A stretch of 64,000 nucleotides of DNA from Macrostomum lignano (taxonomy: Eukaryota). The stretch spans positions 62,001-126,000 of the forward strand of contig NIVC01002236.1 of assembly GCA_002269645.1 (NCBI GenBank). Direction: 5' to 3'. The notes beneath the pieces were generated by a model. That model saw only the letters and a program-made list of their open reading frames with translations, searched no databases and was not told where the DNA came from. Both the position numbers and the translations under genes were made by a program. How positions within the stretch are numbered: position 1 is the first letter of the stretch; each line of letters starts with the position of its first letter. Below are positions 623 through 63,198 of the stretch, piece by piece.

Positions 623-17153
<16,531 letters not shown>

Positions 17154-18639
17154 TCCCTACGCAAAAACGGCACCATCAGGGCGAGTTCTCTGCAGTTGTA
17201 GAGGCTAGTGTTGATTGATAGAATGGCAACGCTGCGACTTCGCGCTCTGGGTGCCTTCGCTTCTCGCCACGACTGGAACAGATTGGCGCAAACAGCTAAA
17301 AATGCCTAACCCTTGCGCGCACGAGTTTCGTCTCAGTCTGGCTTCTCTCCTCTCTTTCCTTTCTCTCCTTTCCCTTACCTCTAGAGGCGAGCAGCCAGAA
17401 TCCAGAGCTGCTAAGGAGAGAAGAGCAAAGCCGGGAGTCGGTAAGTGTGCGCATGCGTGGAGCTGAGAATATAAAACACAGAGAGAGAGTCAACCAACCA
17501 TCGTGAATGGGTGTGCGCGCTCACGGACCGTTGCTCTCGCAGCTTCGGTACACAAAAGCGAAGAGAGATGAAGAGGGAAGGAGAGAGCGAGAGAGCAAAG
17601 CGAAGGAGTTGCTGCTGGAGTCATGCTGGTTGAATTGGAAGAGCTGATGGGGTTTTAAGAGCAGGCCATGGAGCCCGTGACTCAGCCTGTCTGCAAAATT
17701 TCCCTGCTTGACAAAAATCATTTTTTTAAAAGAGCTGCATGGCTCTGCAGTCGTAATTGAAATGACAGCGCCATGGCAGTGAGTACACAGAGAGGAGCGG
17801 AATCTCTGAGCACACATTGTTGAGCAAATTCTCTGCTTATGAACTCGCAGCAGTGAATGAGCCTATTAGTTCAACAAAGAATGCTCAATGAATTGCTGAA
17901 AAAAGAGATTTATCATAAATTGCAAGCAACTGATGCGTTAAAAACCTATCAGATAAGACTAAATTCCCTTCCAACTCAATGTCTGTCTAGGAATCAACAA
18001 TAATCATATAATAGAAAGCTGAACTCTTTTCTAAGATGGCCCCTTTGAGGCAGAAAATATTGGATAAGTTATGGCTCTGTTACTTATATATTTATGAATT
18101 TCCACTAACTACTCTATCAAGATTGAATCCAAAAATCATTTGTCTAATTGTAGCGTTAAAATATTCGCAAAACATATCGTAAAAAATTAATTGCCTCTAT
18201 ATTCTTCTCACAATTTCAATGTTTATGTAGCTCATTACTACTTATACTACTTAGCTACTAATGAAGCGAGTAGTGCCTATAGCTACTTCGTATTTAAACT
18301 TATAGTAAAAATACTTAAAAACAAACAAACAATTTATAGTTATGCTTTTTATGCTTCAAAGCTGCTTTTTGTGGTTCAAAGAGTTCTATGTTTTATTTGA
18401 AACAAGAATTCAATCTTCTTTATCTGATTTTTAAACCCAGGTTTCGACATATTATCTTACAACCATGAATCCAGGCAGAGGCATACGCAGGGGGCGCGGC
18501 CTCTCCCCACCGTCTCCCGCAAAGAACACTAAATGAAAGAGGTTAGTTAGTCCGTTTCATCAGAGGTTTCGATGCATGACAGGAGCTCAACTTCTGCTGC
18601 ACCTCTTAGACGTGGCCTTCGCGAGCCTAGGAGACAGGG

Positions 18640-19078
18640 GGCCCGAAGCATGAGACAGGGGCCCCAAGCATGAGACGGCCCCAAGCATGAGACGGCCCCA
18701 AGCATGACACAGGGGCCCCAAGCATGGCACAGGGGCCCCAAGCATGAGACAGGGGCCCCAAGCATGAGACAGGTGCCCCAAGCATGAGACGGCCCCAAGC
18801 ATGACACAGGGGCCCCAAGCATGGCACAGGGGCCCCAAGCATGAGACGGGTGCCCCAAGCATGAGACGGCCCCAAGCATGAGACGGCCCCAAGCATGACA
18901 CAGGGGCCCCAAGCATGGCACAGGGGCCCCAAGCATGAGACAGGGGCCCCAAGCATGAGACAGGTGCCCCAAGCATGAGACGGCCCCAAGCATGACACAG
19001 GGGCCCCAAGCATGGCACAGGGGCCCCAAGCATGAGACAGGGGCCCCAAGCATGAGACAGGGACTTCAAGCATGACAC
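18640..19078. repeat. 18-20-bp GC-rich minisatellite (GGGGCCCCAAGCATGAGACA)
   Basis: Tandem units seen directly; similar in design to the array at 29565-30130. Confidence 0.92.
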
Positions 19079-19524
19079 AGAAAGTGTCCAGAAAGTGTCA
19101 AAATAAACTCACGTAGCAGAAAATAATATTGTAGACATTTTAGGAAAAACAGTGCAGTACAATATTTTTATAACAATGTGTTTAGCTTTACTGTACTAGC
19201 AAAGTTTCAGTTCACTTGGCTTATTTTTCTTGCTTAAAAAGTTTATGACAGTTATTCAGAAATATCTCGTATCCGGAAACTTTTACGAAGAAAAAGTTAA
19301 ACAAAATCTGGTTATAGAAAGAGGATTTGAAATTCTCATCCAAGAGTTTAATTCAACACCGGGAACTCGAGCGCGTTGTGAATTGCGTCTCTCCGGGCTG
19401 AGATCTGAGATCAACTGTGGGTGATGCAATTTGCATCACAAGGCCTCAGCTTGGGCTGGTGAGGAGAGAGTTGAGAGTTATGGCTAGAGCTGGATTAAAG
19501 CAGTTGCTGCATGGGTGGGTGCAT

Positions 19525-19833
19525 GTGCCAGCGGCCCAGGCTCGATTCCAAGTGCAGTCGCATTAATTTGGAGCTAAATTGGAATCGGCTTGGCTCTGCT
19601 CGTGCAGTTAGCGACGGCCTTGAGAGCAAACCCCACCAAGGCGCAGTGAAGTGTACATGCCTAACGATAATATAAAGTTAGGGCCGCTGTACACTCCTGT
19701 GTGAGTGTGTGCCTGTGCGTATGACTGCGTACGTATCCGCGCGCTTGTGCGCCTGCTCAGGGGAGTCGGCGGAATGGGCAGCAATGCCTCTCGCCGGTTG
19801 TGACAATGTCGCTTAGAGTGCGCCAGGGTGCAC
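19525..19833 (-). repeat. Dispersed ~310-bp repeat, copy 1
   Basis: Reverse-complement match to 46959-47269 and 27871-28350; partial copy at 46082-46225. Confidence 0.85.
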
Positions 19834-20618
19834 ACATACTTGTCTCTAGTAAAAATTAAATAGTTTGTCAGCCTCTTTAAATAAAAGTAAATTGTCCTTT
19901 ACAAAAGCCTTGAATGATAGAAATTTTGAGTGATTTTTGTGGTCCTTGATTAAAACTCGGTATAAAAGAAATACAAGTATAGTGAAGACCCACTTTCTCT
20001 ACAAAAGAGCTAGAGAATGTATACAAATAAGCTGTAAAAAACTTTCTTAACGTGACTGACAAAGACTCAGCACGAGCTAATTAAACTCGACGACGAGTTC
20101 GAAGTGCTTGCTGGCGACGAGGCCGCTAGCGGTGCCGGTCGGCCCGAACAGCAGGCAGTCGCCGGATCCGGGAATGATCAGAGCGAAGAAGCAGTTTGGC
20201 TGCAGGTTCGTGCACCTGATCAGACATTCCATGTGAGATCTGAGTTGCAGTCCAGACCGCTGAGCCAACAGGACGCTAGATGCAGCCGAGATGCTTGACT
20301 GAGTGTCGGCGTAGAGCGAGGCACCCTTGGCCACTGGAAGTTGGATTGCAGTTAAATGATACACCTTTTTGCGTTCTATTTCGATAAAACTGCATTCAGA
20401 TTCGGCAAACTGGCTTTCATTTTCGGCATCAGCTATGGCCGCACATCCAAACTGCAGCTCTGATGCGTCTGATGCGAGATGCGTCTCTTGTAGCATTTAT
20501 TCCCCACTTCGGCTCGGCCATAGTCTACAGAAACGTATCTATTTGGAGTTAAATTGCATCAGGCCAAACAAATACGTCTTATAGTTTTTGGTCAGACTCA
20601 AGTGAGCACTAAATACAC

Positions 20619-21398: not shown

Positions 21399-21509
21399 TA
21401 CTACTAGGCTTTCGAGTGCGATAATAGTCTTGGCTCGAGTGCGCGAAGCTCGAGTGCGCGAAGCGCACGAGTGCCATAGACTATTATCGCACTCGAAAGC
21501 CTAGTAGTA
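21399..21509. mobile_element. 111-bp palindromic MITE / hairpin
   Basis: 32-bp perfect inverted repeat TACTACTAGGCTTTCGAGTGCGATAATAGTCT with an imperfectly paired interior; the outer TA may be the TSD. Confidence 0.75.
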
Positions 21510-22892
21510 ATCTTACATTATTCCTCGCTTATTTCACTTATCTATGACTGCGAACGGCTTCAGTCGCGCAACTACACCCATAAGCTACGATTACATCCAG
21601 CTTTGCCTGGACCCATAAACGAGTCTTCAGCCGTTCACCGCCAAAATGTATCATACATTCATGTATGCCTAAAAAACATGGAAAAAATCTAAAATTTTCA
21701 ATTGAATCTGTGAAACAGAGCAAGTCGAGAGCAAAGAGTAAAAGCGCACGCCCAACTCCCACGAACCAGGCCCAACAGAATCCAAAAAAAGGCTTGGAAC
21801 ATTTTAAATCTTTCTAATGAATTTTGAGGCGAAATTCATACAATTTGCAAGTTTAGAGGCCTTCTGCTGCAGCTGTACATGGGAAACTACATGTAACGAA
21901 CAATTTGGAAAAAATCACATATTCATGTAGACATGCTCTCACATGCGAAAATGTCGATCTCGGTTATGTGGATGTAGCGAAGGTTCGGGTCCATGCCTGA
22001 AGCATTCATGTACATCGTAAAGTACCTGCCAACGATGGGCCTCGTGCAGGTGATGTTGATTGGGTTTTCCTCAACAGTTGGGACGTTGGTGTAGTAGAAA
22101 CAAATTCCGAAAAGGTTTTTGTTGAATGCGGTCCACACAGAGGGGTTGTTGGTGACGCCTGAAGAAAAAGTGTAGCATAAATGGAGGACCAGGTGTTTTG
22201 TAGCGCAAAAGTTTATCTTATAATCTGTCGAAATATCAGTTCAAAGAGTTGGCGGGTAGAGAGGAAAGAATGTAAAGCTTTGCACGAGTATTTGGTGTGT
22301 AAAATTAATTTTGCACACTGACTGTTAAATAAAAACTCTGAACAGGTTCACGGATGAGGTTCCGGATCCGTGGTTAGTAAGTGAGCAGGACAGTGAAGGA
22401 GTAGCAGAAACGGTTAGCAGACATTTGGTCGACTTACATCAAAGCAGTGGTCTCTCATTTTCGACTTCTCTCTGCGTAGAGAAGAAATCAAACGCAGGAT
22501 TAACTTGTGTATAGTTAGATTTAATTAATAAGCATATATTTTCAAGACGGAACATTGTCAGGAATAAACACTGGGACAAAAAATTACGCACGTGCACAAA
22601 CAGCTTGAATAAAGGAAAAACAACGAAGCACTTGCTGCTATTGCGAGATACTACAAGGCAAAGTACGCTCGTAATGTATTCATGATTTAAATCTTCAGAA
22701 CTAAAACAAGACAAACTAAATGTATCTTCAAGGCATACTACGTTCATCAGATGAAAAAATTGAAGATTAAATGAATTATCAGTTCATAGCTAAACAACTA
22801 AGAAAACTTCGGGCATTTCGCTGCAAAATGTACTTATTCATTCATGGACTTCGCAGCATTTGTCACATTTGCTTCTATCCATTGTCTAAAAA

Positions 22893-27870: not shown

Positions 27871-28350
27871 GTGCAGCCTGGCGCACCTTAAGCGACATTG
27901 TGACACAACCGGTGAGAGGCATTGCTGTCCATTCCACCGACTCCCAGGCACAGCAGGCACAAACTACTACAGTATGGATACGTACGCAGTCATACGCACA
28001 GGAGTAGTAGGGGAAATTTGGGCTCTACTTTACCCGCGGCAGACTAAGGTCCCATGGAATTTCCATGGCTTTCCCTGCGGCAGAGTCTACCAATGCATTT
28101 ACATAGGCTCCTATGTTCACTCACTAAGGCCCGTGGTTTTCCCGTGGAAATTCCTGCGGCAGAGTCCACATTTCCCCTACTACTACTCGCAGGCACACAC
28201 TCACACCGAAGAGTACAGCGGCCCTAACTTTATTTATCGTCAGGCCCTGGGGATTGGCCCTCAAAGGCCGTTAATTGCACAAGATTCCAATTTAGCCCCT
28301 AATAAATTTGCATTTAGTGACTGCACTTAGAATCGAGCCTAGGCCACTGC
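27871..28350 (+). repeat. Dispersed repeat, copy 2 (interrupted by the 185-bp TIR element)
   Basis: Colinear with 46959-47269 except for the insertion at 28003-28187. Confidence 0.85.
28003..28187. mobile_element. 185-bp miniature TIR element with AGTAGT termini and 6-bp TSD (Polinton/Maverick-like ends)
   Basis: Left end AGTAGTAGGGGAAATTTGGGCTCT; right end reverse complement AGTAGTAGTAGGGGAAATGTGGACTCT. Flanks CACAGG (27997-28002) and CGCAGG (28188-28193). The empty site TACGCACAGGCACAC is present in the paralogous repeat copies. Confidence 0.75.
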
Positions 28351-29564
28351 CGCATACACCCAGAAACTAATTGTTAACGTTCCAACTCTGAAACCGTTAT
28401 TAAATTATTATTCAATCATTAAAAAATCATTAGCTGAAGATATTTGAGAAGCTACAGGTGTACGTAAGAGCCGGCTAGGTATTTTTTATTAAGGCTTCGC
28501 AGTTTTTGTTTTCACAGTTATTTAACAATCGAGAGTGAAAATGATAGATTCATATATGGCATTAGAAAGATCTTTTGGACAAGTCAGAAGAAGGAGCAAA
28601 GCGGAGCTCAACTGCATCGCATGGCTCTGCAGATATCAAGAAGTTCAATGCTACTTTAATTTTAAAACCAGGCTAAAAATTTAATTGAATCTAGGTTTTA
28701 ATAACTTATCTTATCTTAATTTAACTTAATTCTTAATTTAATTAATTTATTCTATTGAATAAAATAAAATAAAATTAATTTTAATTATTTATTTCTTAAC
28801 TTAATTATTAACTTAACTTAGTTTATACGTAAATAATACCGCTGTCAGGAAAGTGGGCAGTACATGCAAATTTTCAAACACTTTCTTCTTACCTGTAACA
28901 GCAGCAGAATAAAACTTCAAAGCCCAAGTCACGAGAAATAATCTTTGCATTTTTAGATGCATTTTTGATTGCTAGTCTAATTGGTGGCACTATGAGTGAT
29001 TTAGTTAACACAAAATGAGGTTCTGTTTGACAAAGTATAGCTACCGAAAGACAAAGCTGTCGAATTTCTTCTTCATTTATTTGGCTTTAATAGCTTGATA
29101 AGCTTCAGAAACAGCTGGCTGCCACCCGCTGGCATCCGATAAATAACTCATCTGTCAATTCACAATTTATCTTTTGTTTTGCTAGCTAGAAAACATTCCA
29201 AATTATTATCGACAGTTGCTATTCATCAGTTGAGACTGGCAGCACTGACAGCTGGTGGAGCGATAGTTTTATCTCTCTATTTTTCCCTTGTCCAAAAAAT
29301 TATTCAGCTTCAATTTGGGGAAATCCATGGGAAAAAATGCACATGCTTGCTAGCTTCTCTTGCGATTTGGAAACACGGAAAACTTCGTATCTTGCTAAAT
29401 GCAATTGGACATGTTTGCTCGTAGGAGCAGCGAAAACTGACCTTGCTGTGAAATTTGCACGATTTGCGGGTGCAGCGTCCATCAATATCGATTTCTATGG
29501 GTCATTGAGCACGGAGACAAGAGACGGAGGCGCCGCCCAAAATTAGATACAGGCGTCTACAACT

Positions 29565-30439: not shown

Positions 30440-33400
30440 GCAGGCACACAACAAACCCTAACACTCCCCCCTAATGATGCTTTATCATTACAACATACTT
30501 GATAGCGTAACGCACCATCACCAAAGTACTAAGTTATGGAAAAAGCAGAAACACAAAAGGCGCCAAGGAGCAAAAATGTAAGCATCATCACCAGCGTACT
30601 GTACCATAGCGAAAACCAAATGTCGCGTTGAGAAGTTTACTCACAGAGCACGAGCACGATAGGATAAGAACTTGAAGATTGAAACTAAGGAGGGATAAAG
30701 ACTGAGAACTCAGACGTCAATAGTCACTGTCAGCTTTAGAAACGTCAATAACCGTTAATTCAGTCACGGCTTCTAGCAAAATCAGGTTTTCAACCGGCCG
30801 GCGAATCAAGCATCTCCTGGGTCCGCGGCCTGGCCTTTGCGCGACTCGAACTGTTGCCGATCTCACTCGTCTCGTCCCGGATGCACTGCCTCTATAATGC
30901 AAGAACACCAAGTGAGCCTCGGTTGGCAGCTTCGCCTTTCACCAGGACGATGTCACCGACCGTCGCCTCTCCGATCACGCCGTGCTTAGGATTGAGCCGA
31001 TGTTCACGCAAGCTGGTCAGATACTGCCGCTCCCAGCAGTCCCAGAAGGCATGAAGTCTGGCGCGCATTCGCTTCAGCAGTCTTGGCAACGGTAGCAGAA
31101 GATCTGGCGCGCAACTAGAAGTAGGCTCCGCCGTTAGCCGCTGTAACACCAGGAAGTGTGCCGGTGTCAGAACTTCTCCTTCGGGCTCGGCATCCACGTA
31201 GAGCAGAGGGCGGCTGTTGAGCACCGCCTCCACCTCCATGAGCACTGTCAGCAGTTCGTCCAGTGTTAGACTTGCATTCAGAAGGGTTTTGGGCAGTGCC
31301 AGCTTGATGTCCTTCATCAGTCGCTCCCAGAAGCTTCCTTGCCAGGGTGCGCGTTCCGTGATAAACTGCCAGGTAATCTTCCGAGTGGCGCAGAACTCCT
31401 GAACCTTTTGACTCTCCGATGCTTGCAATATCCGCGCGGCTTTGGCGAATGTCTTAGCGTTATCGCTAATGAGACTAGGGATACCTCTCCTTGCACAGAA
31501 TCGCCTTAGGGCTCTAAGAAGGTCTCAGTTGTTAGATCTGTGAGTTTTGGTGTTCGTTGTGTTGGCTGTTTTGGGGGTTGGCCTACTCTGGGGGGTTGGA
31601 ACGCTTTTATTCACCTGAACCTATATCGATCGGAATGTACGCGCGTACATAGTGAATGACAAATATATATATCGACTAACTTTGCCTTTGAGCCCTCGTG
31701 CTGATTTTTCTCGCAATTATGGTCTTACAGATCGTTCACCAGTTCTAGATGAAGCGCTCGCGTTGCTGCGCAGGTGAACACTAACATGTAGCCCTTTTCG
31801 ACAGCAGTGTCTTTTCTCAGCTTGACCGGACCACAGTAGTCGAGCCTGCTCCACTCGAACGCTCTCATTGCTTTCAAGCGAGATTCTGGCAACGCAGGAA
31901 CTTGCATCACAGCGAACGGGAGTGCCTGAAGACGCCTGCAGACGACGCATTTTCCAAGAATTGCCTTCACTCGCTGCCTGCCACGGATCAGCCAAAACTT
32001 CTCATGCAGTTTGCAAAGGGTGCTGTGCGCGTCTCGGATGAGGAGAACTTCTAGATGAGTCTTGTTCGGGATGAGGATGGGGCAGTCAACAGCTGCAACA
32101 ACGTTTGATTCTCTCAATCGACCCCGACTTTGGAGCAGACCTTTGCTGTCGAGGAAGAGATTCAGCTGCTTTGCAAGATCCGTAGATGCTGTCGACCTTT
32201 TAAAGTGAGCAATCTCAGCAGAGAAACTCCTTCGTTGTACCTCTTTCAGCCAACGCTCCTTTGCTTCTGACACTTCTGCAGCTGTCAAAGTTCCTGCTCG
32301 CTCCTCACTATTCCAGCTTCTTTCTGGCTCATCAGAATGCGGTGGTACTCCTGCAGCAGTGCGGGTTCACAGCGCAGCCTGCTCAGGTTACTCTAAAGCC
32401 TCTCGAATGCCACGTCGTCAACTGTTGTCAAGGCCTTTGTTGTTCCGTGCGTGCAGCAGAGAAGCACTTGCTCTTTTTTTCTTTCAGTCCTCCTGCCGAA
32501 ATGGCGTCGGACAAGGAGCCACACAGGAGCCACCCAAGCTGACTGGCTACCGCAACCAGCTCGGTGCTGATTTCAGAACGATCTATCTGTCCTGTGACAA
32601 GGTCATAGAACTGGTCAGCTCCTATGAGGATGTTGATGTCTGGATGCTGCTCGCTGCCGATGTCTCAGTCTGCCAGATCCAGATGTGGGAAGTGATCGCT
32701 GCGCAAGCTGTTGATGAGAGCAGATGTAGGGCACTGTGTTGGCGCGCAATGTGAAGGGAGTGACGCCGTCGAGCTTACGAAGTTGGAAATCGATCTTCTC
32801 CGTTTGCACGACCTTGGGCTTTGTGCCTCCAAATGTCGTCACTTCCATTGTTTCTTTGCCTATCACACAGAGTCCCATACGCTCAGCTACGCCCGACAGG
32901 ATGAACGAACGGTTGCTCGCAGAGTCGAAGAGAATTCGAACCCGTGTTTCACTGCAGCCATCTGGTGAAATCAGTACAGCTCCCGCGGTAGGAAGAACCA
33001 CTGTCTGGACCTTGGTGACCATCGCCATTGTCTTTACTTCGTGGCTCTTGACACTCTGCGTGGCCGACTGTTCGAATTTCTTCTTTCCTGAACCCGCCGT
33101 ATCGAAGTTGCAACTAGGCGTCTTGTCTGCCGGTCTCGGTGGCTGTTCCACTCGCGCAGCGCAGAGACTGGGATGATGCTTTAACTTGCAGAAGTCACAC
33201 TACTTCTTTTGATAACAAGTCTTTGTGGCATGACCTTTAGAGAGGCAACTGAAGCAGCGTCTTTGTTCTTTCAAGAACTGAAGCCTAGCAGGCACATCCA
33301 CCAGTCGATTGCAACTCTCCGGAGCATGTTCAGCGTCACAATAAGGCTCTGGCTCTGGCGACCTTCGTAGCCTTCGTCTGCAAAGCAGATACCGTGCCTT

Positions 33401-34706
33401 CCTTGGTTTGCCTGTCAACAGTGGAAGCCTCTGATGAACTGGCTGCTTGAACTCCTGCTCCGAAAGCCGCTTCCTCTCTAACCAGGATTTCAAGTCCAAG
33501 ACATTGAGGAATTCCTTGATCGAATCTAAGCCGTTCTCATCCGTCACCTGTAGCTGACTGACACCATAGAAAGGCCGTAAGGCAACCATCCTGGCAGTTC
33601 TAAGCATCCCGAGACGGACCACTTCGTATGAAGCAACGTACACTCACCCCGAGATTCTCCAGGCTGCGGACATTGCCGTTGACTTGATCGTGGAAGTTTC
33701 TGAGTTGGTGGACTGAAGCACCTGAACAAGTCAGCGCCGAGAACTTCGCCAGATGCTCGCGCACGGCTCCACTCCGGGATCCAAACCGTCGTTGCAGGTT
33801 ATCGATCTTGTCGATCTTATCGATCTTGTAGTTCTCGGCTGTGATTTTACGGCCGGCGATCGAATTCTTGGCTTCTCCTGAAAGGCACGATTGCAGGTAG
33901 CTAAACTTTTCGACGACGCTGAGGCTCGGGTTGTCGTGGATGCTGGAGCTGAAGCGGTCCCAGAATGCAGTCCATTGCGTCCAATCTCCATTGAATGCTG
34001 GCGGCGGCAGCCTAATGGCCGGCGTAGTCGTCAAAGCAGAATTCTCTCGCGGTGACGTGGATGGAGTTGACTTTTTCGTTTGCTGTTGATCTTTAGCCTG
34101 CATGCGGCTTTCTCGCTCGGCCTGAAGACTCTGCAGTCGCTTGGCAAGACTCGAAATCATCTTCCCAGCCAGTAGCTCTCACTCCATCGTCTTCTCCACT
34201 TACTCTTGGAGTATTTTCTCGTCGATCTCAACGGACAGCTCTTTATCCGCTGCCAGCAGCTGTTGCTTCTTGAGGCGCAGGGCTTCCAGTACGCTGTCGA
34301 TGTCTTCCTCAGCAGCCCCTGAGTTGAGCAGGTCTTGGGCTTTCTGGGCTAATCTGGTGACCGTCGCTCTCAAAACTCCACGCTTTTTGGAGCCCATGCT
34401 GAACTGATAAGAAATCGGGTGAGTCACTGTAGAACTATAGAGCCAATACTTTCACTTTACTTTGATTTTAGTTCGGGCGCCATGTTGTCTGAACAAGAAA
34501 TTGAACAAGTCTGAGGGCCGTCAATTTAGCTAACAAGAAAAAATCAACAATTAAGCGCTTACTGAGAGGTCTGCAATACCTTGTAATACTGTATATTTAA
34601 CTTAAGTCTCTCGCAACAACCACCCCACCATGCGCACTGAGGAGGGGGACACACAGCGTACACACAAACCAGAGGGTGCTTGGCAGGCACACAACTAACC
34701 CTAACA
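30440..34706 (-). mobile_element. BEL/Pao LTR retrotransposon, internally deleted (no RT/RNaseH), with frameshifts
   Basis: 5' LTR 34706-34483 (TG...CA) and tRNA-Lys-type PBS TGGCGCCCGAAC (34482-34471). Gag DUF1759-like FNGDWTQWTAFWDRF, CCHC CFSCLSKGHATKTC, protease LFDSASNRSFI, integrase LDYCGP/APWQGSFWERL and C-terminal FWDCWERQYL...VGDIVLVK. PPT AGGGGGGAG is followed by only ~24 bp of 3' LTR (30463-30440). Confidence 0.9.
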
Positions 34707-34768
34707 AAGAGAATCTACTCAATTGGATTCGAAAACAGTTCACGGATTATTGTGTTCAGCGGTGAATT

Positions 34769-36530
34769 CTACACAGCAATGAAGTCGAAGTACTTGCTGG
34801 CTACGAGTCCGCTAGCGGTGCCGGTCGGTCCAAACAGCAGGCAGTCGCCGGATCCGGAAATGACCAGAGAGAAGAGGCAGTTTGGCTGCAGGTTCGCGCA
34901 CCAGATCAGACATTCCATGTGAGATCTGAGCTGCCGCTGAGCCAGCAGGACGCTGGTGCCGGCAGACAGGCTGGACTTGGCATTGCTGGTGTAGAGAAAC
35001 GTGCCTGCAGTGGAGTTTGAGTTTGTTAACGCATCTCTGACATCTGCAGGTAACTGTAGTAGCAGCGTAAAAACTAAGAAACGTTTTTATCACTCACGAG
35101 CGAAAATGTCGATTTCGCAAATGTGAATAAAAAAGATCGATGTTTGTAACTCCTGTGACGTTCCTGTACATGGTGAGGTACCTGCCGGCAACGGGCTGTG
35201 TGCAGGTGATGTTGATTGGGTTTTTCTCAGCAGTCAAAAAATGAGTGTAGTATTAGCAAATGTCGAATAGGTCCTTGTTGAATGTTGTCCACACGGAGGG
35301 GTCGTTGGTGATGCCTGTTTTTGTGGATAAATTATTCGTGTGGGACTGTCATGTTTCTTTGAGCTCATTGAATTTAACATATCAGGATATCTAAGGTATG
35401 AATGATAGTGAAAATAATTGATTACTCCTGACTTAATGGGCAAATATTCAACCGACAGCTCAGCCGCAGCTATTGCGCGGTGCATCTGAAGGCTGCGTAT
35501 GGCTGCTCAGTCCAAGGACTGGGGGGTCACCACCCACACCCTCAATTATCACAGGCTCCTCAGCTAATGCTGGCACCCATTTTACAACTTGGTGAACTGA
35601 AAGCAACGCTGAGCTAAGTGTCTTGCACAAGGACACAAATTGTACTAGTTTGGTCGAGATTCGAACCTCGACCTTTCAGTGGTGACTCCGACGCCAGGTT
35701 ACAATCCGCTAGGATATGAAATTTCTACCTTGTGTACGGTTTTTAGCTTGTGTGGTTCTGGAAGTGTTCTCTCTACATTTACATGTGGAGAAATTTCTAG
35801 CTGCTGACGCACCACTCTGAAAAATGGGATTCGCAAGGTGTCCTCCCCTATCAAATACGATCCTCCTGAACGATATGCATATCCAGACCCGAGCGCCAAA
35901 GATGACGTACGACTATTCCAAGTCCAGCATCAGCCAGGGTTGTCGGTCCAAATTATTGATGTGAACCAGCATCCCACCGGTAAGGCCATCGTTGATCATT
36001 TTCGGTTGCGCTACTCCTGGGACCACAGGAGACGCCTTCACGGGCTTGTTCTTGAGCACTTTAACCAGCTCAAAACCTGCTGCATAAATTTCAGTAAAAA
36101 TTAGAAATCGAATGGGAGAGGATAAAAATATGCCTAATATACAAATATTTCAGGAGCATTTAACAGTCGTCTACCATGATCTACCATGACCTATCATGAT
36201 GTGCCATGATCTAATATGATCTTACCAAGATCTAAGCTGCCTACCATTATCAACAATTATCTACCCATAATCTATCCATGACCTACATTGTCCACCATTA
36301 TCAACAAATATCTACCCATGATCTACCATGACCTACTATGATTTAACGAGGAAATTACGAGTAAACTAAATAGTGAAACGCTAGACGTCCTGTATGCAAC
36401 CGTTCGGAAGCGGCATAAATTTAAAGTTTATTAAATTTGCAGAATTGCAGTAGAACTGACGATCGCTGACTGACCACTGACGATAGCAAGATGACAACAC
36501 AGTAGAGTCGCGATTCCTATGAACTTGTTA
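34769..36530 (-). pseudogene. F-type lectin + PAN/apple-like gene, copy B (pseudogene)
   Basis: Signal-like exon ~36530-36475 (FIGIATLLCCHLAIVSG). Exon 2 starts at 36076, has TAG at 35913-35915 and breaks off near 35880. Exon 3 (35314-35098) has TAA at 35253-35255 and a 2-nt deletion. Last exon 35004-34769 is intact. Confidence 0.8.
35412..35700 (-). mobile_element. CORE-like tRNA-derived SINE, second copy
   Basis: Reverse-complement match to 12851-13177 (shared GCAGCCTTCAGATGC.CCGCGCAATAGCTGCGGCTGAGCTGTCGGTTG). Confidence 0.8.
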
Positions 36531-37590: not shown

Positions 37591-40284
37591 TCACCAGAAG
37601 TGACACTTTTTATCGTTAGCCAAGTATATTGGATCTCCCGGCTTGCAGTTGAACACCCTGGCGAAGTCCTTCGACTGCATCACCAGGCCGTTCACTCTGG
37701 GATGCGGTGGCGAGTGAGAATTATTTTTTTGTCGAGAAATCAGAGCATCCATTTCCGCCTTGGTGCAGTGCAGCTGGGCCTGCTGGATGAAGAACAGCTG
37801 ATCAGGTGTCAGGCCTGCCAATTTCTCTCCTGGAAGCATCTGAGGCCGATTCCCAGACTTCAGCAATTTTGCTGCTCTGTTTCTGTAGGCTAGGAAAGCG
37901 GAATTGGTGCCAACAATATCGGCAAAATTTTCATCAAACTTTTGAACCTCTGCTTCCGTTTCCTCTTCCGAAATTTCGGATTTCGCGAACTCAGGATCGA
38001 TGATCTGGCTGTAGAAATTAGCCAGACAGTCAGTTTTATTGCCGTACCGCAGCGCTGTGATATTGTCAAATATACGTTTCTGTTTGTTTCCAACACTAAA
38101 TTTACTAACTAATCTGTCGCAGCCGTGCCCGACCTCGTGGCCGATTATGTAGCCGACGCCACCGTACAACAGGTAGTCAGGGTAGCCCTTCATGTAAATT
38201 TTGCTGAGCAGCAGGCCAAAGTAGATAAAAATCGAATTGTCGTATGGTGAATAATGAGCGTTGACAGTAAACATTCTTGTAAACATATCTTTTGGCATCA
38301 TGTCCTGTTTGTCAGCTGTCGCAATCCAAAGTCGATTCTGAAGCTGAGTGCTTTTAAACTGCAAAACAACATCGCCAAATGTTCTGCTTTGGTTAACTTG
38401 AGCAGCAACTTTTGAGTAGCCTTCGGTGAACTCGGACATGTTGAACTGGGGGTAGCCAACAGTGCTCCGCATGGCATCGATTCTCTTCTTAATTGCTGCT
38501 TTACTCGGCTGCTCAATCCACGCCTCGCTGTCCACATTCTCCCACATGGCCTCCTTGATGTCGCCGATTACCACTTTCACTGAGTTGAAGTCGTCTGTGA
38601 CGAAGGCGCTGCTGAACATCTGCAAAGCCACTGGCGGCATGGAGCCCAGCATCATGTTCATGCACAGTCTTGAGCTGTTCCGACCTTCTTTCTCATGAAT
38701 GAGATACTTTTGTTGCCCGAAAAGGTTTTTAAAGAATTTAAACGATTCGTCTGGAAGAAAATTGACTGCCGACAGTGCAGAGTCCAGGAGAATAAAGTCG
38801 TAGTACGGTCCCTGTCTGTGCTCCAGCTCTGTTGTGAGCTGCTCGAGTACAAAAAATAATAGCGGGTACCTAATAATTTCAACTTTCATTGAGGGAGGTA
38901 ACTTATTGGCTGAATACTTGCTCACAGCGCTGTAAAACTCCGTCCAGTTAAAGTTGAGATTTTCTGCCTCAAACAAAGGCAAATCGTATTTGAAAGTTGG
39001 TCCTTACCATCTGGAACAGCTGCAGAATTTTACTCAGGTTAACATTTTCTGAACTGCAGGCTTCATCTGATTTATACTAACAGTCAAATTCAGGTCTATG
39101 AGATCACTGAAATCTTCTAATGCAGAAATTCCGTCATTGAAAACCTTATTCCAGGATTTCAGGGTAAATAGGTAGTATGGTGACGAGTGCAATCTCAGAC
39201 TCCGCTCCACCGAGCCTGGCGACAATCTGAACAGATCCGATGTACCGGTTATTACCAGTCTCGCTAGGAAGTCTTCAATGCCTGAGTAGCCCTCTAGAAA
39301 GTCCAACAAAGGTCTCACTAATGATTTCATGTCGAACGGTCGTTTTCCAGTCTGCCAGCTGTTCGGGAGAAATTCCTCTTTCTTAGAATTCAGAACGCTG
39401 GAGCCGCGCCAATCCATGCAGGTCCCGTAGATGGATCGCAGCGTCTGGAACAGCTGCGCTTCGCTTGCGTCTCTGGGCTTGGACAAGTTCTTGAAGTACA
39501 TCATCTCAAATAGATTTCCTTGAATGGAGTTGTCCTCCTGTAGTACTGAGCCCACGGTCTCGGCGGTGAAGGGGTGGCTTTTATGGAAACCGCCGCAGGC
39601 GAAGCTGTAGAAGTCTTGGCATGGGTCCGCAGATCGGTCGATGTGGCTCTGCAGCAGTGCGCTTGCACTTATGCAGGCCTCGCTGGTGCACAGGCTGGGC
39701 TGCTTGGGAGTGGCTGCTGCAGATAGCAGTTGGCCGGTAGCTGCTCCAGGTGGTAACCGAGCTGTGCTGAGAGCGTAGAGCAGAACGAAAACTAGAAGCA
39801 GAAACGAAAGTACCGCTATTGCTAGGTACACAGACAGACGTCTAATTCGCTCGTGTAGAGTTGAACTCTCAACTCTAACGCGGTTGAAAATGCTCTGTTG
39901 AAAATGCAGCAATTTAAGGTACGAGTATGTCATTCGTATTGTGTCGCATGTGCCATACATTTTCTTCCTGCATTTCCTTGCCACCTCCAGACTCTGTGTT
40001 TGTGACTACCTGTGCGGTCTCGCTCCCTTGTCCTATCGTAATTCCCTTACAATTTCCTTCTTTATCCCCCCCTGTGACTATGCCTGCCTTCCACATGTCC
40101 TTTCCTGCCTCCATTTAAAGTTCCTTCAACCAGGACGGGTGGTCTGTGGCTGCCATTCAATCTTCCAATCTCGAAACCTACTCCTCCAGGTAAGCCTTCG
40201 GGAAAGTAAGACCGGATACTATACAAGCTACAATGCAAATCTTACCATCGAACTTGCTCCAGCACTTGTATCAGTAGCCTTCAT
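37591..40284 (-). CDS. Neprilysin / M13 family type II membrane zinc metallopeptidase
   Basis: Predicted short exon 40284-40246 (MKATDTSAGASSM) spliced to 39894. TM segment LSVYLAIAVLSFLLLVFVLLYAL, CTSEAC...DPCQDFYSFACG, GHEVGH zinc motif, ENFAD third ligand, C-terminal HSPPHPRV...FNC...KCHFW. The two long ORFs are in the same frame but are separated by two stops near 39000-39036. Confidence 0.85.
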
Positions 40285-43181: not shown

Positions 43182-43945
43182 AGGGGGTTTTCATTTTCAG
43201 CCCAAAAAATTATTATTGCTTTTGCAAAACGCAGATCCAGTGTTCATCTTTTGATATGTTTTACCATTCCTTTAGCTCTATTGAATATTATAATAAAGAT
43301 TTTATCTTAGAAAATTATGGTTTTAAGTTAATTAGGTAGTACGTTAAATGAAAGAGATGTAAAATTATGTGGTTCTAATTGGGTTCACTTTTGTTTTTAC
43401 AGTTTTCCGTATGGAAAAGTCAGGCTAGAATAAATACAAGCCGGGTGCTTTTTAATTATAGAAAAGATAAGATAATTTCATAGAAAATTCTAGAACTCGA
43501 GAATATTGAGCGCGGGAGTTTAAATGGCCGGCTAATATAGAATTTTGTTCTCGCAGAAATTTCTAGAAAGGTACATACGTACGTACATGCTTACATGTCC
43601 TGTGTCCTATCTAATAAGGCTTGGCACAGCTCGACTCATTCGCTTTATGAACCTATTTTATCATCTCTGCTACACATAATTGTTACATAATCAGCAAGGA
43701 ATGATAAAACATATTAATAAAACTACGGCTAATGAGTCCAGTCGTGCTATTTTTAGGTCAGGACATGTACGATTGTGCTCATGACATAAAAAATTAACAT
43801 GGAATCCACATTTTTTAATGGAAAGCTTTATGAATATCAATAGAACAATATGAAAGGTACAACATATCAAAAGACGAACATGGGGTCTACATGCCTCCTA
43901 TCAAAAGCAGTAACAATTTTTGTGCTGAAAAACTGAAAAAACCCT
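43182..43945. mobile_element. Foldback/MITE-like element with ~90-bp imperfect inverted repeats
   Basis: 43182-43269 pairs with 43850-43945 (for example ATCCAGTGTTCATCTTTTGATATG versus CATATCAAAAGACGAACATGGGGT). Confidence 0.6.
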
Positions 43946-44733
43946 GTTTCCGTAATGTATTTTTCAGAGAAACCCAGTTTCCCGTACCTATTCTACTTAA
44001 GTAGTCACTGATGCTTACTCTTTATAAATTCGTGGCTTCATATTTGAAAAAATGTTAAAAATATAAGTGACATTAACGATAAGAAAAATTTCAGTTGATT
44101 AAAAGCTTTAAAATGTCGGTAAAACCTATTCAAATTTAGTAAAATTTCTAGGGGATTCGTTAATAACAATTTTTTTAACACATACCACACGTTCAAATCA
44201 AAACATGTGGGTAATTTCTTGTAATAGTAAACAAAGTATTTGAATAAAATAAAAAACTGTGATTCAAAAACAGAATATGATCATTCATCACAAGGCCGGA
44301 AAATCTCTTTATCAGTTAGACAGTGTAGAGATCAAACGATAAGTTATTTACATGCATACTAGAAATAATGTATACAAATACTTAGATTTACATACAAGTA
44401 CATGCGATTTCAAAAATAGCTCGTAGTTCAGTTTAGGGCTCCAGAATAAAATAACCAAAGAATAACAAAAACCTACAGCTATCATTTTTGAAATGATTAA
44501 CTTGAATTTATATGATAGCATCTATCGATAAGGCTGACTTACAGAACGAACAGCCAGACAATAACTTTTCAGACATGAATGCTACGAAGAGGACCGAAAC
44601 AATAGCAACTGTTCATAATTGAACAGGAGATTCAAAACTAGACAAAAAGTCGCATAGTCATCCTTTTTGATGTAGAATCTTGTCGGCTTTATTTGCAAAT
44701 CGTTCTCGAACTAATTGTGCTCAGTGGCGAATT

Positions 44734-46408
44734 CTACACAGCGGTGATGTTGAAGTACTTGCTGGCTACGAGGCCGCTAGCGGTGCCGGTCGGTCCGAAC
44801 AGCAGGCAGTCTCTGGATCCGGAAATGACCAGAGCGAAGAGGCAGTTTGGCTGCAGGTTCATGCACCAGATCAGACATTCCATGTTAGACCTGAGCTGCC
44901 GCTGAGCCAGCAGGACGCTGGTGCCAGCAGTCAGGCTGAGCTGAGCATTTCTGTTGTAGAGAAGCGTGCCATTCGCCACTGCAGTGGAGTTTGAGTTTGG
45001 TAAGCATCTCTCACATCTTACCGGTAAGTGTAGCTGCAGCGTTTGAATTAAGAAAAAAAATCACTTACGAGCGAAAACGTCGATTTCGTATATGTGAATG
45101 TATTTAAGGTTATCGTCAGTAATTCCCGTGACATTCATGTACATGGTGAGGTACCTGCCGGCAACAGGCTGCGTGCAGGTGATGTTGATTGGGTTTTCCT
45201 CAGCAGTTGGAACCTGTGTGTAGTAGTAGCAAATGTCGAATAGGTCCTTGTTGAATGTTGTCCACACAGAGGGGTTATTGGTGACGCCTGCATGTAAGAA
45301 GTGTATCAACAGCGATACAAAGTGTGAGCATACTGCTGAATAATGATGCTATAAGACGCATGGTGATTCAACGGTTTCCCGCAACAGGGGCGTCGCCCTA
45401 AATGGGTTTGGCCGTCTTGTTTGTTTGCGGGAAACATCACAAACCGATAAGACAAAATAGACGTCAATCCATTTTACTTTACAAATTCGCTTTTGCTTCG
45501 AATTCTTTGGAACATGCGTACATGTACGAGCGTACATGAATATACAATTAATAAGTTAGCTTCTAAAAGATTGTACTTTACTACGCGTATATGTATATGT
45601 AAATATCCGCAGAAAAAAGACGAAAGTGCATACCAAATTAGATTTGCGTAAATCGATGCGCCCACTCGTCGCGCCGGTTGTAAATTCGGGCGCTAAAGAT
45701 GACGTAAGACTGCTCCAGGTCCAGCATTAGCCAGGGTTGCGGATCCAAACTATTGGTGTGAACCAGTAGTGTTGCATTGATGATGCCATCGTTGATAGCA
45801 ATCGGTTGTGCAGTTCCCGGGCCTATGGAGGAAGCTTTCACAGACTTGTTCTTGGGCACTTGAACCAGCTCGAACCCTGACGCATTGATTTCAGCAGGAA
45901 GAACATGCACCGAAGCATAAATAAGATAAAATTATTTGCAACGTACATGTAGTTCACGAGCTCAAGAGGCTCAGAAAACAAAAAGGGTACTGAATCTCTA
46001 CAAATTGATCTGCCATGATTTTAACATGATCCAACTATGATCTGACGTGAGATTAATGAGGCCAACCCCCAAGGCACAGAGAGTGTACATGCCTGACGAT
46101 TAGAAAGTCGGAGCCGCTGTACACCCTGTGTGAGCTTGTTTGTGCTCAACAGGAGTCAGCGGAATGGTCAAAACTGCCTCAGCTCTGGTTATCGGACGAA
46201 GTCGCCGAAGGTGAATTTCACTCGTATGTAACTGTGATCTACCGAAATTCAATAATTATACTACTTTCATCCAATTGAAATGTATGAAATTTTGTTAAGG
46301 CCTGTGTACCTGCAAGGATGTAGCATTTTTCTCACCTCTAGCGGTCACGATAAGACAGCACAGCAGAATCGCGATTTGAAAGAGTTCATTGGAGATTTTT
46401 AAAAGCAT
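44734..46408 (-). pseudogene. F-type lectin + PAN/apple-like gene, copy C (intact except one premature TAA)
   Basis: Signal exon 46408-46336 (MLLKISNELFQIAILLCCLIVTARG). Exon 45876-45634 has H-x27-RRD-x4-R and TAA at 45638-45640, 5 nt before the donor. Then exon 45287-45069, a candidate 12-nt exon 45033-45022, and the PAN-like exon 44978-44734. All introns are phase 1. Confidence 0.8.
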
Positions 46409-46958
46409 GTCGCTTGCAGAAATTGGGGCCCAGTATGCTTGAAGGTATCTCCGGGTTCTTAAACTCTGGTGGCTCACTTTTGTCAGCTTTCACGCAGCTG
46501 AATTTCTATATAGCTTAGCTGCTGTTGTTCTGCTATTCTCACCTGGTTGTCAAGGCTACGCATTGTAAATTTCATGCAAGAAGCAATTCAGCTACTCTTA
46601 CTGGCTGCCCGCGGCCCTGGCGCCTCCTGCTGCCTAATGGGAGGCTGCTTGCACAGCTGGCTGTACGCAGTCAGTAAGAAGCTGAGGCCTGTCTGGTTTC
46701 ACAGAAAAGAAGAGCCGAGAGACGAGCTGGAAATCCTACCGGTAAGCCTCGTGTTTTAATTGTCAATTATTCATGGAGTTTGGAAGCGGGCGTATTCACA
46801 CAGACTATAGCGAAGTCGCGCGTAGAGAAGTGAAACAACAATTCATTCCATTTTCAAGCCTGAGTTAGAGCTGACAAATGTCAATGCAGTATCTTGATTT
46901 TCATCATCGATTCTACTAAATATGGCAATTAAGTTATCAGATCTTTTATAGAGGTTGC

Positions 46959-47269
46959 GTGCACCCTGGCGCACTTTAAGCGACATTAGGCACACAACCG
47001 GCGAGAGGCATTACTGCCCATTCCGCCGACTCCCCTGAGCAGGCGCACAAGCGCGCGGATACGTACGCAGTCATACGCACAGGCACACACTCACACAGGA
47101 GTGTACAGCGGCCCTAACTTTATTTTATCGTTAGGCATGTACACTTCACTGTGCCTTGGGGGGGTTGGCTCTCAAGGCCGTTAATTGCACGAGCAGAGCC
47201 AAGGCGAGATTCCAATTCAGCCCCAAATTAATGTGACTGCACTTGGAATCGAGCCTGGGCCGCTGGCAC
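46959..47269 (+). repeat. Dispersed ~310-bp repeat, uninterrupted copy
   Basis: Matches 19525-19833 (inverted) and 27871-28350. Confidence 0.85.
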
Positions 47270-50200
47270 ACCAGAGCCTGCGCTAGACCGCTGGACTACG
47301 GCCCCCCGTTACCAGATTTTAACTTTTCGTATCATTTTAAAGCTGCTGAATTACTTAATTCTCTATTGACTATGCATTTCAAAGAAAAACATGCAATTAT
47401 GAGTACTTATTGAGCTTAGCAAACATGTGAATCAATCTTAGAATCGATTTTTAATGTCCATTATAGCTTGCCCCAGCTTGTGATATAGAAGAAGTTTAGT
47501 AGGCCGGTATAATTGGTTATACATAGCTGCAGTAGTGGCTCGCCAGCTGGCTTCATCAATAATTCCCAGGATTACCTGCCAAGGCTTTCCCGTCATTGCA
47601 CTATAACAGTTTCCCATAATGCATTTTTTAAAGAAAGCTCCTGAAAATGTTGGGCCATAGCGACGCTGCTCAACGCCGCTCTAAAAACTGCAGTTGAAGA
47701 GGCAGAGAAGAGAAGTATGTACAGTACAAAGCACGGAAACTCGGCCGTATATAGAACTTCATCGCCTGCTAATTGGCAGTAGCTCAGTGCAAGTTAAGAC
47801 AAAGATGGAACAGAAGCTGGAAGCCGGAGCCTTTAGAGAGAAAGAAATGATGAAGTTTATTATAAATTAATTAAGTGGCTGGAATACTTGCGTCAGGCGA
47901 AAAAGGTGCATGGCGAGTCAGAGTCTGTAGAGACTGTAGAGCTAATCTGTAATTACTTGCAAATATGCAGCAGGAGTGATGGCTGCGAGAGGCTGAGACT
48001 GACAACTATAAGACCGTAATCCGTAATACTGTGAGCAATACTTTGAAAGACAATTAAGGCCTTTTAAAGAACCTACAAAATGAGATGACACAGATTCAAA
48101 TTCTCGAGGCAACCTCTTGTTTGCCCAAGGCCTATCTATGAAACTGCGTGGGAGCTTGCAGGGATACCTGGTATGTATATATAGAGGCCGAAGGAGTGAC
48201 TTGTGTAAATTAATGCCAATCGATTCCATACATTGCAATTATTAAGGAAATGTAACCATACAAACAGCAGCTGCTGCAAGTACCATTTTTGATAGACAAA
48301 AGGCAAACACAAAGACCATGGATGATCGATGAGCCATCCAACCTTGTAGAAAGATTTACAGTAGACTGCTCCGTATATCGATTCTATAAAAGCAAATGGA
48401 GTCCCAAAAAATTACATTGTGTATCTTAGCAACAGTAGAGATCGTTGCAGTGGCGAGATTAAGGCGCCCTGCCCTGCTGTCAAGACTCATGGTTTTACAT
48501 ATATAGCATGAAATCCAATTTCTTTATACGTACATATGTATAATATAGAAAATATCCGTAGAGATACTTAGCCCAAACAAATTAGATTACATAATAGTGT
48601 TACATATATGAATGGACATGTTGCGTGAAAACAAATTAGGACCACTGAGAACTTCTAGTGGTGCTTGCATATCTGGGCATATGGTACATGTATATATTTT
48701 TGTGTGTTCTAGCCCGATCATTTTTTACACTAATTCGATGAGCATCTGAGACAGCTAGTTGAGCTGTGATTGAAAGCCGCATGATATTTTCAGCCATTTT
48801 CCCTAATCCATGAGTTGATTCTTGAGTTGAGTTGAGTTGTTCTTGAGTTGTAGGTTCCCAAAAGGATGGTGAACTCAACAATGGCGGAGTAGATTTGTAG
48901 CGGTAGCACTTGGCAAATCAGCGGCAAGATAAGTAAGGGTCGCAAGTCGCAACTTGTTTATTGTAATTGTCAATATAGGTTAATACAGAGGCTATAGCAC
49001 GCGGGGCGCTGGCGGCTGCAACAATGGGTTTGAATTTAATAGATTAAGTAGGGTGATGAGCAGATTGATGAAGGTGACGCAAATAGTAGAGCGATGGCGA
49101 TGAGTAGACAGTGGTGGCAGCCTTCGGTGGCAATGCAAACTGGCAGGCAGGAAAGTAGCGTAGTAGGGCCTAGCGAAGGCGGCTAGCCCATGGTGGCGTG
49201 AGACAGAGAGAGACGAGAAAGCGTAAACAAGTCTGGCCCAGACGGAGCGGGGCCGTGGCGAGAGATAAAGAGAGAAGGAGAGCACGAAGGAGCGGGGAAA
49301 AGCAAAAACAGAAAGTATCGATCACGTGAAGACCCTACAGGCGTACGCAAGGATTACAAATGTACGTAATGATTAGCAATTGATACAGATTCGTTGGGCG
49401 CTACTACAAGTAAATGTGCGCATACAAGATTGGAGAATGTTAATTAATGAGAAATTGTAGTCCAACGGCCCTTTTGCGGGACCACTTTAAACTGACAACG
49501 TCACATATACCATGATATATGTGCATGGTATATACATAATTGGACGAGTTAGGTGTGCTGCAGTTACGTGTGCATTTATGTACATTACATCGTAAATATG
49601 TACACGTACAGGTGTATTACAAAGAACCATGCACGGACCACTATAGGTAACCGTTGTACAACGGTGTGGTCCTTGCAAAGAACTCTTACATATATATGTA
49701 ACTTATATAAATTTGCTCTTGCGTCCATAACTGTTAAAAATACATGCAAATGCACATTCGGTGAATTACGGTCATCCATTTCTCAGAAAAGGATCAAAAT
49801 AACGAAAAGTTAAATGCAAAATGCATAATGATCTGTATTATGTCATGTACACATACATGTAAAGAACTTCGTTTTATAATATCTTTAAAGTATGACTTCA
49901 CGCAAAGACATCACTACAGTTCAGATAGGCAATTTTGTTTCTAGCTAGCACATAAATAGACAGCATTTTTTGATACAACTTGCCTTTTTATTGTTATGTA
50001 CATTTATGGTATGAAATTTCTTACGGTTTGCAAATAAAATGTAAGTTCGGGTTTTAATAACGGTTTTAACAACATGTTTTACAACATATAAAAATAGATT
50101 TTAAAACTGTACTATTTAGCCTGTAGACAATAAAGATTTTGTTTTTTATTTTAATTATTATGAATATATTATTTTAATTAAAATTAAAAAAGTAATATAA

Positions 50201-50358: not shown

Positions 50359-60118
<9,760 letters not shown>

Positions 60119-60889
60119 GTGGAGTAAACTACAAATTTCTACGGTTCAAACAAAAAACTAACTATACGCTATTTTTGCTACTGACCATAAAGTAAGTAGT
60201 GTAGTTTGGACATTTATTTAATTTATATAAAAATTATTTTTCGACCCAATTTTATTTGCTACAAAAGCATTTTTGCGCAATTAGTTTTTTTGCAAATATA
60301 TGCTACTGCAAAGTGAGTAATATGCCGTGTTCAAACCTTTAGTTATTTTTCTATTTGTCTTTTTCACTTTTTTATGTTTGCAACAAGTTCGCGTACGTAT
60401 GTTTCGCGTCTCTCTGCTCACATATTTTTGTCCGCAGGCAGCTAAATTAGACCTTGAGCATGCGCTATACTGATTTCAGTAGACACTCTGGTAACAGGGG
60501 TGTAATGTCTGATCAATACGGCTCACTCTTGGTTGTAATTGTATATAGCATTTTTATTCATTCTATAAAAATTGTACTAATATCAACGCTATTTTTATTT
60601 CCTTTTTATACTAACTGGCATTTTAATGCAATGGTGCAATTTCGTATTTATTCAATTCTCTCAATTTATGCTTTTTAAGCTGCCCCCGTAATGTAACTGT
60701 GTTGTAAAACTCGACTGTGTCTCGACTTAATTGATCAAATAAGCGTTGGTTTTTATTAACAAATTGAAATACATTGTTGGCATGCAGTTCGCCACCTTGA
60801 CCTTGTGTAGGCCGCAATTCGAATCGAATGTACCGAATAATTTTTGTTTGAGTGTGTATTGATGCTTGAGTGTGTTTTGTTTATTTTTA

Positions 60890-62800: not shown

Positions 62801-63198
62801 CGCCTTTTCTTAAATTATTTCTTATTTCTTACTTTTCTTAAAGTATATATAAGTAGTATCGGCAGCGCATGAAATGGTGCATAATAATAACAATTGCACC
62901 ATTCTAACGCACTTATTATTCACCGTTAAAGTGCAATGATTCCAGCGTAGACCTTGCGGCGTGAGAACACGAAAAGAATGTGGCGCCACGCTGTACAGTG
63001 TTGCTATTTTTAGACTGGGCTTGACAAGATTTTCCTATGCAGTTTAGGCCGGTGACCTAAGAGAGCAATTTTTAGAATCCAATTGGGTAGGGAATGCACT
63101 TTGACTTGTAATATAAATAGCTTGAATTTTTTCAACTCTCGCATCTTTCTCTCGCTTCTTTTACTTTGAAAATATTCTCTTAGTAAAGGCACGAAGAC

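Follow-up and report, generated by a model that had tools for sequence, protein, structure and literature searches.

A 185-bp insertion with Polinton-like ends lies at positions 28003–28187 of a 64-kb stretch of Macrostomum lignano DNA, the whole of which is called the window here. The insertion has (AGT)2 at its left end and (ACT)3 at its right end, and it raises the question of whether a mobile element can be this small and still be moved as a Polinton, or whether a longer element has shrunk at this site. An earlier note on this DNA took it for a MITE-sized element that a Polinton integrase mobilises, and on that description the short form itself would be spreading. The ends, the insertion site and the copy pattern of the element were analysed to choose between these readings.

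The element interrupts a decayed host repeat on the minus strand (27871–28360). Paralogous copies of this repeat are found at 19524–19836 on the plus strand and at 46956–47310 on the minus strand, and the site is uninterrupted in both, within 19699–19738 (near 19,700, in the opposite orientation) and within 47057–47096 (near 47,080). The filled copy is longer than the empty paralogues by 191 bp net. A joint that skips the same 191 bases is present in read-derived contigs of all four runs examined (nine contigs in total). With two empty paralogues and a net gain of 191 bp, the insertion is real, as the earlier note had stated from the same two sites. Over aligned columns, the identity of the filled copy to the two empty ones is 89% (240/270) and 88% (237/268), and the two empty copies share 96% (289/302).

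The host repeat is likely a tRNA-type SINE. The copy at 47 kb carries A-box-like (47298–47288) and B-box-like (47255–47245) motifs 32 nt apart, which agree with the promoter pattern quoted in the excerpted text of PMC8969392, and it has a very high summed depth in reads. Rfam at the gathering threshold and ARAGORN returned no matches within the 64-kb window. A second repeat in the window (12875–13151 vs 35413–35694, 80% identity) has a B-box-like motif near one end and is likely another tRNA-type SINE family.

The left terminal inverted repeat (TIR) is 24 bp long (28003–28026, plus strand), begins with two AGT triplets, and matches the right end at 22/24 positions when the additional triplet on the right is left out of the comparison. 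The right TIR is at 28161–28187 on the minus strand. None of 20,000 random 185-bp windows reached an end score of 22/24. The 15-mer AGTAGTAGGGGAAAT has two matches in the window, at the two ends of the element only, against 0.08 expected. The triplet counts given in the earlier note (two left, three right) are retained, and its TIR length of ~25 bp is revised to 24 bp plus one triplet.

The left end mirrors the right end for 24 bp only, after which a motif repeats in direct orientation. A plus-strand patch at 28027–28042 repeats the subterminal motif (28028–28043 vs 28069–28084, 14/16). It is followed on the same strand by a first ~80-bp subterminal unit (28043–28122), common to longer multi-copy elements, and by a partial second unit (28123–28169, 77% identity to the first over 48 columns) that runs into the right TIR. 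Both units contain a GC-rich motif, and its third, short copy, after the left TIR, is in direct orientation. The loss of the mirror after 24 bp, together with the direct orientation of the motif, points to rearrangement.

Six-frame translation of the 185 bp gave nothing recognisable by eye, and a 202-codon open frame over the locus had no Pfam match. A coding role was ruled out, the overlapping frame being without a Pfam match. The folding z-score of the element is −5.36, which reflects the TIRs and was not accepted as a sign of RNA function. An alternative delimitation, a GGGG..CCCC core element with a TA duplication, was also rejected because the triplets are absent from the empty site and present in the related contigs. 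Neither a second copy of the element nor any other AG..CT element with a perfect 6-bp target-site duplication (TSD) was found within the 64-kb window. A 111-bp near-palindrome at 21399–21509 (82% self-complementary) has TA on both sides and ends in ACT/AGT triplets whose orientation is opposite to that of the 185-bp element; it is possibly a TA-targeting MITE.

Copy pattern was read from assembled contigs of sequencing runs. Runs X1–X4 (at most three samples from two studies) were compared over 27950–28240, with 32 pieces shown and 2,491 more that are mostly host repeat. Runs X2 and X3 were also compared over 27991–28199 (42 contigs, 16 pieces shown). Part of the stretch is contained in 5 of 24 listed runs, none with half of its words, and no RNA run is listed as containing it.

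In run X2, a contig of 50 bp whose end falls exactly at 28184 has a depth of 471.5, against 8.84–12 for this locus. The right-end contig depth is 39–53 times the locus depth, a ratio that is not equal to copy number. Relatives end at 28184, after two triplets, in 4/16 pieces shown for X2 and X3 and in 6/32 for X1–X4. None of the 42 contigs of X2 and X3 reaches 28187, and the last three letters, 28185–28187, could be an additional triplet or else the first letters of a 9-bp TSD. Of the 16 pieces shown for X2 and X3, six extend 379–767 letters inward, with sequence unlike the left end of the element. A 682-bp contig starts at 28184 (141 letters matched, with nine differences and one gap), is ~9 times as deep as a single-copy-like contig, and has a loose end that resembles the end of a further unit. 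The right ~142 bp of the element is the terminus of longer multi-copy elements. This copy differs by 4–7% from the nearest multi-copy contigs, so the insertion is not fresh, and by 13% from another family.

A sister family with the same subterminal motif has ACT-triplet ends, seen at loose contig ends, with two triplets in the X3 row and three in those of X2 and X4. Contigs on 28043–28184 in X1–X4 indicate at least three longer repeat families that share the subterminal motif; their ends, where seen, carry ACT triplets.

The left end has a different copy pattern. Across the four runs, positions 28010–28039 are covered by one contig only (102 bp, 27979–28080, no differences, depth 8.84). This contig has 24 letters in the flank and overlaps an error-free contig spanning 27950–28008; the left junction is covered by these two overlapping error-free contigs of run X2, neither of which has 31 letters on both sides. 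None of the contig pieces shown spans the right junction (32 on 27950–28240 and 16 on 27991–28199). A near-identical left end in another flank would be expected to break a unitig, and the unbroken run from the flank into the left end speaks against such a second copy in that sample. In X1, X3, and X4 the left end has zero depth, which was treated as a hole and was not counted as absence.

By contig depth, the left TIR and the short patch at 28027–28042 are the single-copy portion of the element. The left 40 bp is at single-copy depth and no amplified MITE family is seen; contigs show presence rather than absence and the filter omits records, and the short form could have further copies that are diverged or were filtered out. 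The element resembles a MITE in being short and non-coding with TIRs and a TSD. Many homogeneous copies of the short form were not found, the left end being present in one contig at single-copy depth. Of the element proposed in the earlier note, the Polinton-type ends stand, and the spread of the short form, although possible, finds no support in copy number.

The commonest end of vertebrate Mavericks is (AGT)2//(ACT)2, with 6-bp TSDs, in the excerpted text of PMC8097293, a description with which the hallmarks named in the earlier note (AG...CT ends of AGT repeats and a 6-bp TSD) agree. Polinton ends of the form (AGT)2//(ACT)2 or (AG)3//(CT)3, as described there, are found at this element, and the related contigs end likewise. 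Under a 6-bp reading, the left TSD copy is CACAGG (27997–28002, plus strand), with the same letters as the empty site, and the right copy is CGCAGG (28188–28193, plus strand), with one mismatch.

Maverick-type ends, a single-copy left end and a right part derived from longer multi-copy elements lead us to favour, tentatively and at somewhat below even confidence, a collapsed remnant: a longer Polinton-type element would have been inserted by an integrase with a 6-bp duplication and would later have lost its interior. A Polinton-type origin overall is considered probable. On the collapsed-remnant reading, a longer AGT-ended element would have entered the SINE through a Polinton-type integrase, and the 6-bp duplication would be the work of the retroviral-type integrase that Polintons carry. 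Its longer relatives may be Polintons or gene-less Polinton derivatives. Maverick end repeats are expected to serve jumping-back initiation, according to the same excerpt of PMC8097293, and the extra right-hand triplet may be a slip of such initiation by a protein-primed polymerase.

Nearly all of the interior would have been deleted after insertion, if the order of events is as supposed. A deletion with a short templated patch would have fused 24 bp from one terminus with ~145 bp from the opposite one. This would probably have happened in place, aided by pairing of the long inverted ends and the ~80-bp tandem units. The remnant has no recognisable coding and shows no sign of further spread. 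Degraded copies make up 96% of vertebrate Maverick loci in the available portion of PMC8097293. The imperfect TSD counts against a collapsed remnant, as does a 9-bp reading that yields exactly the usual two-triplet end of the family. Polinton parentage is proposed from the end motif of the one copy seen with both flanks and of the related contigs. As a collapsed remnant, the element would be an ordinary fossil and mainly a pointer to several uncatalogued AGT-ended Macrostomum repeat families.

The main rival to collapse is a one-off, helper-driven insertion of an already short form. The short form would have come first, as a defective replication product of a Polinton, and would then have been integrated in trans by a helper integrase, in very few copies. 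Collapse in place and this one-off insertion predict an identical sequence here. Insertion in trans is a possible account, on the doubtful side. Both ends and the duplication are retained, and template switching during strand-displacement replication might yield the patchwork left end. A named non-autonomous family, Polinton-1N1_DR, exists in the excerpted text of PMC9341505. Against insertion in trans, the only run that contains the left end has it at single-copy depth, the 64-kb window holds no second copy, and the 24-bp TIR is shorter than 46 bp, the shortest among intact vertebrate Mavericks in the PMC8097293 excerpt.

A bolder version of the short-form account, to which we give little credence, is that 185 bp of DNA with only 24 bp of one terminus suffices for insertion by a Polinton integrase, which would give rise to MITE-sized hitch-hikers. 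Variable numbers of AGT triplets would then record passage through protein-primed replication, and this copy would mark the minimal cis-acting Polinton end. Independent movement of the short form, if shown, would set a bound on the minimal sequence needed by a Polinton integrase and would extend non-autonomous Polintons down to MITE size.

The length of the TSD bears on the remaining explanations, and its readings were enumerated over boundaries that give 191 bp at this one locus. The 6-bp reading matches at 5/6 positions and requires a single substitution plus a third triplet on the right. The same net length of 191 bp follows from a 9-bp reading, which defines a 182-bp element (28003–28184) with symmetric two-triplet ends, a duplication matching at 7/9 positions (27994–28002 vs 28185–28193), and terminal matches of 18/20 without any offset. 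A 3-bp reading gives a 188-bp element with its first triplet mutated and one mismatch. A 4-bp reading has a perfect duplication but requires two additional terminal bases. By inspection, outside the enumeration, an 8-bp duplication minus one dinucleotide also yields 191 bp. A rough likelihood ratio of 6 bp over 9 bp is 1.2–27, using rates that were assumed. Six base pairs appears to be the best reading at this single locus, short of demonstrated. The 6-bp duplication with one mismatch proposed in the earlier note is therefore kept as the best of several fits and loses its standing as the sole one, since the 9-bp (two mismatches), 3-bp and perfect 4-bp readings also fit.

Mutator-like elements typically have 9-bp TSDs and long, repeat-rich termini. 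The 182-bp element with a 9-bp TSD would be the remnant of a Mutator/Foldback-type cut-and-paste element with long, tandemly repeated termini, an origin that we judge unlikely. Its flank match, net length and offset-free terminal matches are as given above, the related contigs do end at 28184 in the pieces counted, and tandem units of ~80 bp are present. However, this origin requires that two of the 9 bp were substituted and that one of these changes created a perfect ACT triplet, and the rough likelihood ratio runs against it by the same 1.2–27 under assumed rates. The sister family also shows three-triplet ends, and AGTAGT ends are not known to us from any Mutator family. The AGT-triplet motif is the Maverick norm in the PMC8097293 excerpt.

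Membership of some other or unclassified DNA transposon group, with a 6-, 3-, 4- or eroded 8-bp duplication and a likeness to Polintons by convergence, is improbable: the 3-bp, perfect 4-bp and dinucleotide-loss 8-bp readings all fit 191 bp, and IS3EU and GingerRoot produce 6-bp TSDs in the excerpt of PMC10045372, but the termini described in the excerpted sources are TA..TA or occasionally TG..CA for IS3EU and GingerRoot and TGTNR, with 4–5-bp TSDs, for Ginger1 and Ginger2, whereas the ends here are AG..CT, and the 3-bp and 4-bp readings require ends that are absent from the related contigs. A collapsed Polinton-type remnant remains the reading that we prefer.

The window contains other repeats and genes. 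The ~760 bp between ~120-bp inverted repeats with 74% identity (43182–43945) is likely an old non-autonomous DNA transposon. Broken minus-strand frames at 30892–34178 match DUF1759 and DUF1758 and include an integrase-like frame, seen by eye and without a Pfam match; this region is likely a decayed BEL/Pao LTR retrotransposon. One or two unclassified interspersed repeats (75–87% identity) are present as fragments at 20099–20300, 21945–22177, 34727–35317, 35890–36094, 44691–45290, and 45687–45894. Two long minus-strand frames (37591–40005) encode a Peptidase M13 (neprilysin-like) and have close M. lignano paralogues. One window protein has its top 3 of 48 matches in Macrostomum lignano at 78–94% identity, and the next are at 25–27%, which places the window in this flatworm or a near relative. 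An MCM helicase gene at 53360–59031, with MCM_N and MCM domains, has minisatellite arrays between its exons. Minisatellite arrays are dense at 771–19080 and 53976–62807, and many of those in the first 12 kb apparently fill introns of a minus-strand coiled-coil gene.

Possible relatives were sought beyond the window. The terminal 15-mer was found in viral contigs at 75 loci, as single matches only. The viral-contig loci were treated as chance, the longest alignment being 32 columns among 78 loci and the best-scoring ones 17–25 columns. The motif-plus-end pattern was found at three metagenome loci without flanking similarity, in no viral contigs and in no prokaryote genomes.

Non-autonomous Polintons have been named before. 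Polinton-N1A_NV is named in the excerpted text of PMC11296320 and has a capsid gene, and Tlr1 is sometimes called a non-autonomous polinton in the portion of PMC5499653 available. An apparent absence of non-autonomous copies in the anole is remarked on in the excerpt of PMC3014272. The available text of PMC6431247, PMC8502044, PMC8504770, PMC8232201, and bioRxiv 10.1101/2024.01.15.575659 names no MITE-sized Polinton derivative. No Polinton derivative this small was found in the literature, a weak blank with Kapitonov and Jurka 2006 and Repbase outside the search, and no literature on Polintons in Macrostomum was found, judged from the titles listed. The category that the earlier note considered rarely described already has named members.

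Among known systems, Ginger1 and Ginger2 are integrase-related elements whose TGTNR termini and 4–5-bp TSDs, in the excerpt of PMC2836005, are unlike the AG..CT ends here. IS3EU and GingerRoot, also integrase-related, share a 6-bp TSD with the best reading at this locus and differ in their termini, as far as the excerpt of PMC10045372 goes. All of the other integrase-type superfamilies checked differ in their ends, in keeping with the Polinton-type ends proposed in the earlier note. Cut-and-paste MITEs arise by internal deletion, in the excerpted text of PMC8232201, an origin that the element here would share. They are also alike in small size, short TIRs, a TSD and the lack of coding capacity; the element is unlike them in showing no amplification of the short form, and its ends are unlike those of the superfamilies checked.

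To judge by its name, Polinton-1N1_DR is like the element here in being gene-less with Polinton-type ends, and would depend on a helper. It was reportedly first described by Kapitonov and Jurka in 2006. This zebrafish family is a catalogued repeat family in the excerpt of PMC9341505, whereas the 185-bp form shows no second copy.

Polintons and Mavericks are alike in the end motif, in the 6-bp TSD under the best reading here, and in short terminal repeats suited to jumping-back. TSDs of Polintons in general are 5–8 bp in the available text of PMC10748475. Intact vertebrate Mavericks have TIRs of 46–1,447 bp and sizes of 12.7–24.6 kb in the PMC8097293 excerpt, whereas this element is 185 bp long with a 24-bp TIR, no genes and one extra triplet. 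The 185 bp contain none of the Polinton genes (pPolB, integrase, ATPase, protease, and capsid), and the element is therefore not an autonomous Polinton. Judged by its ends and contents, it would work like a Polinton-ended relic.
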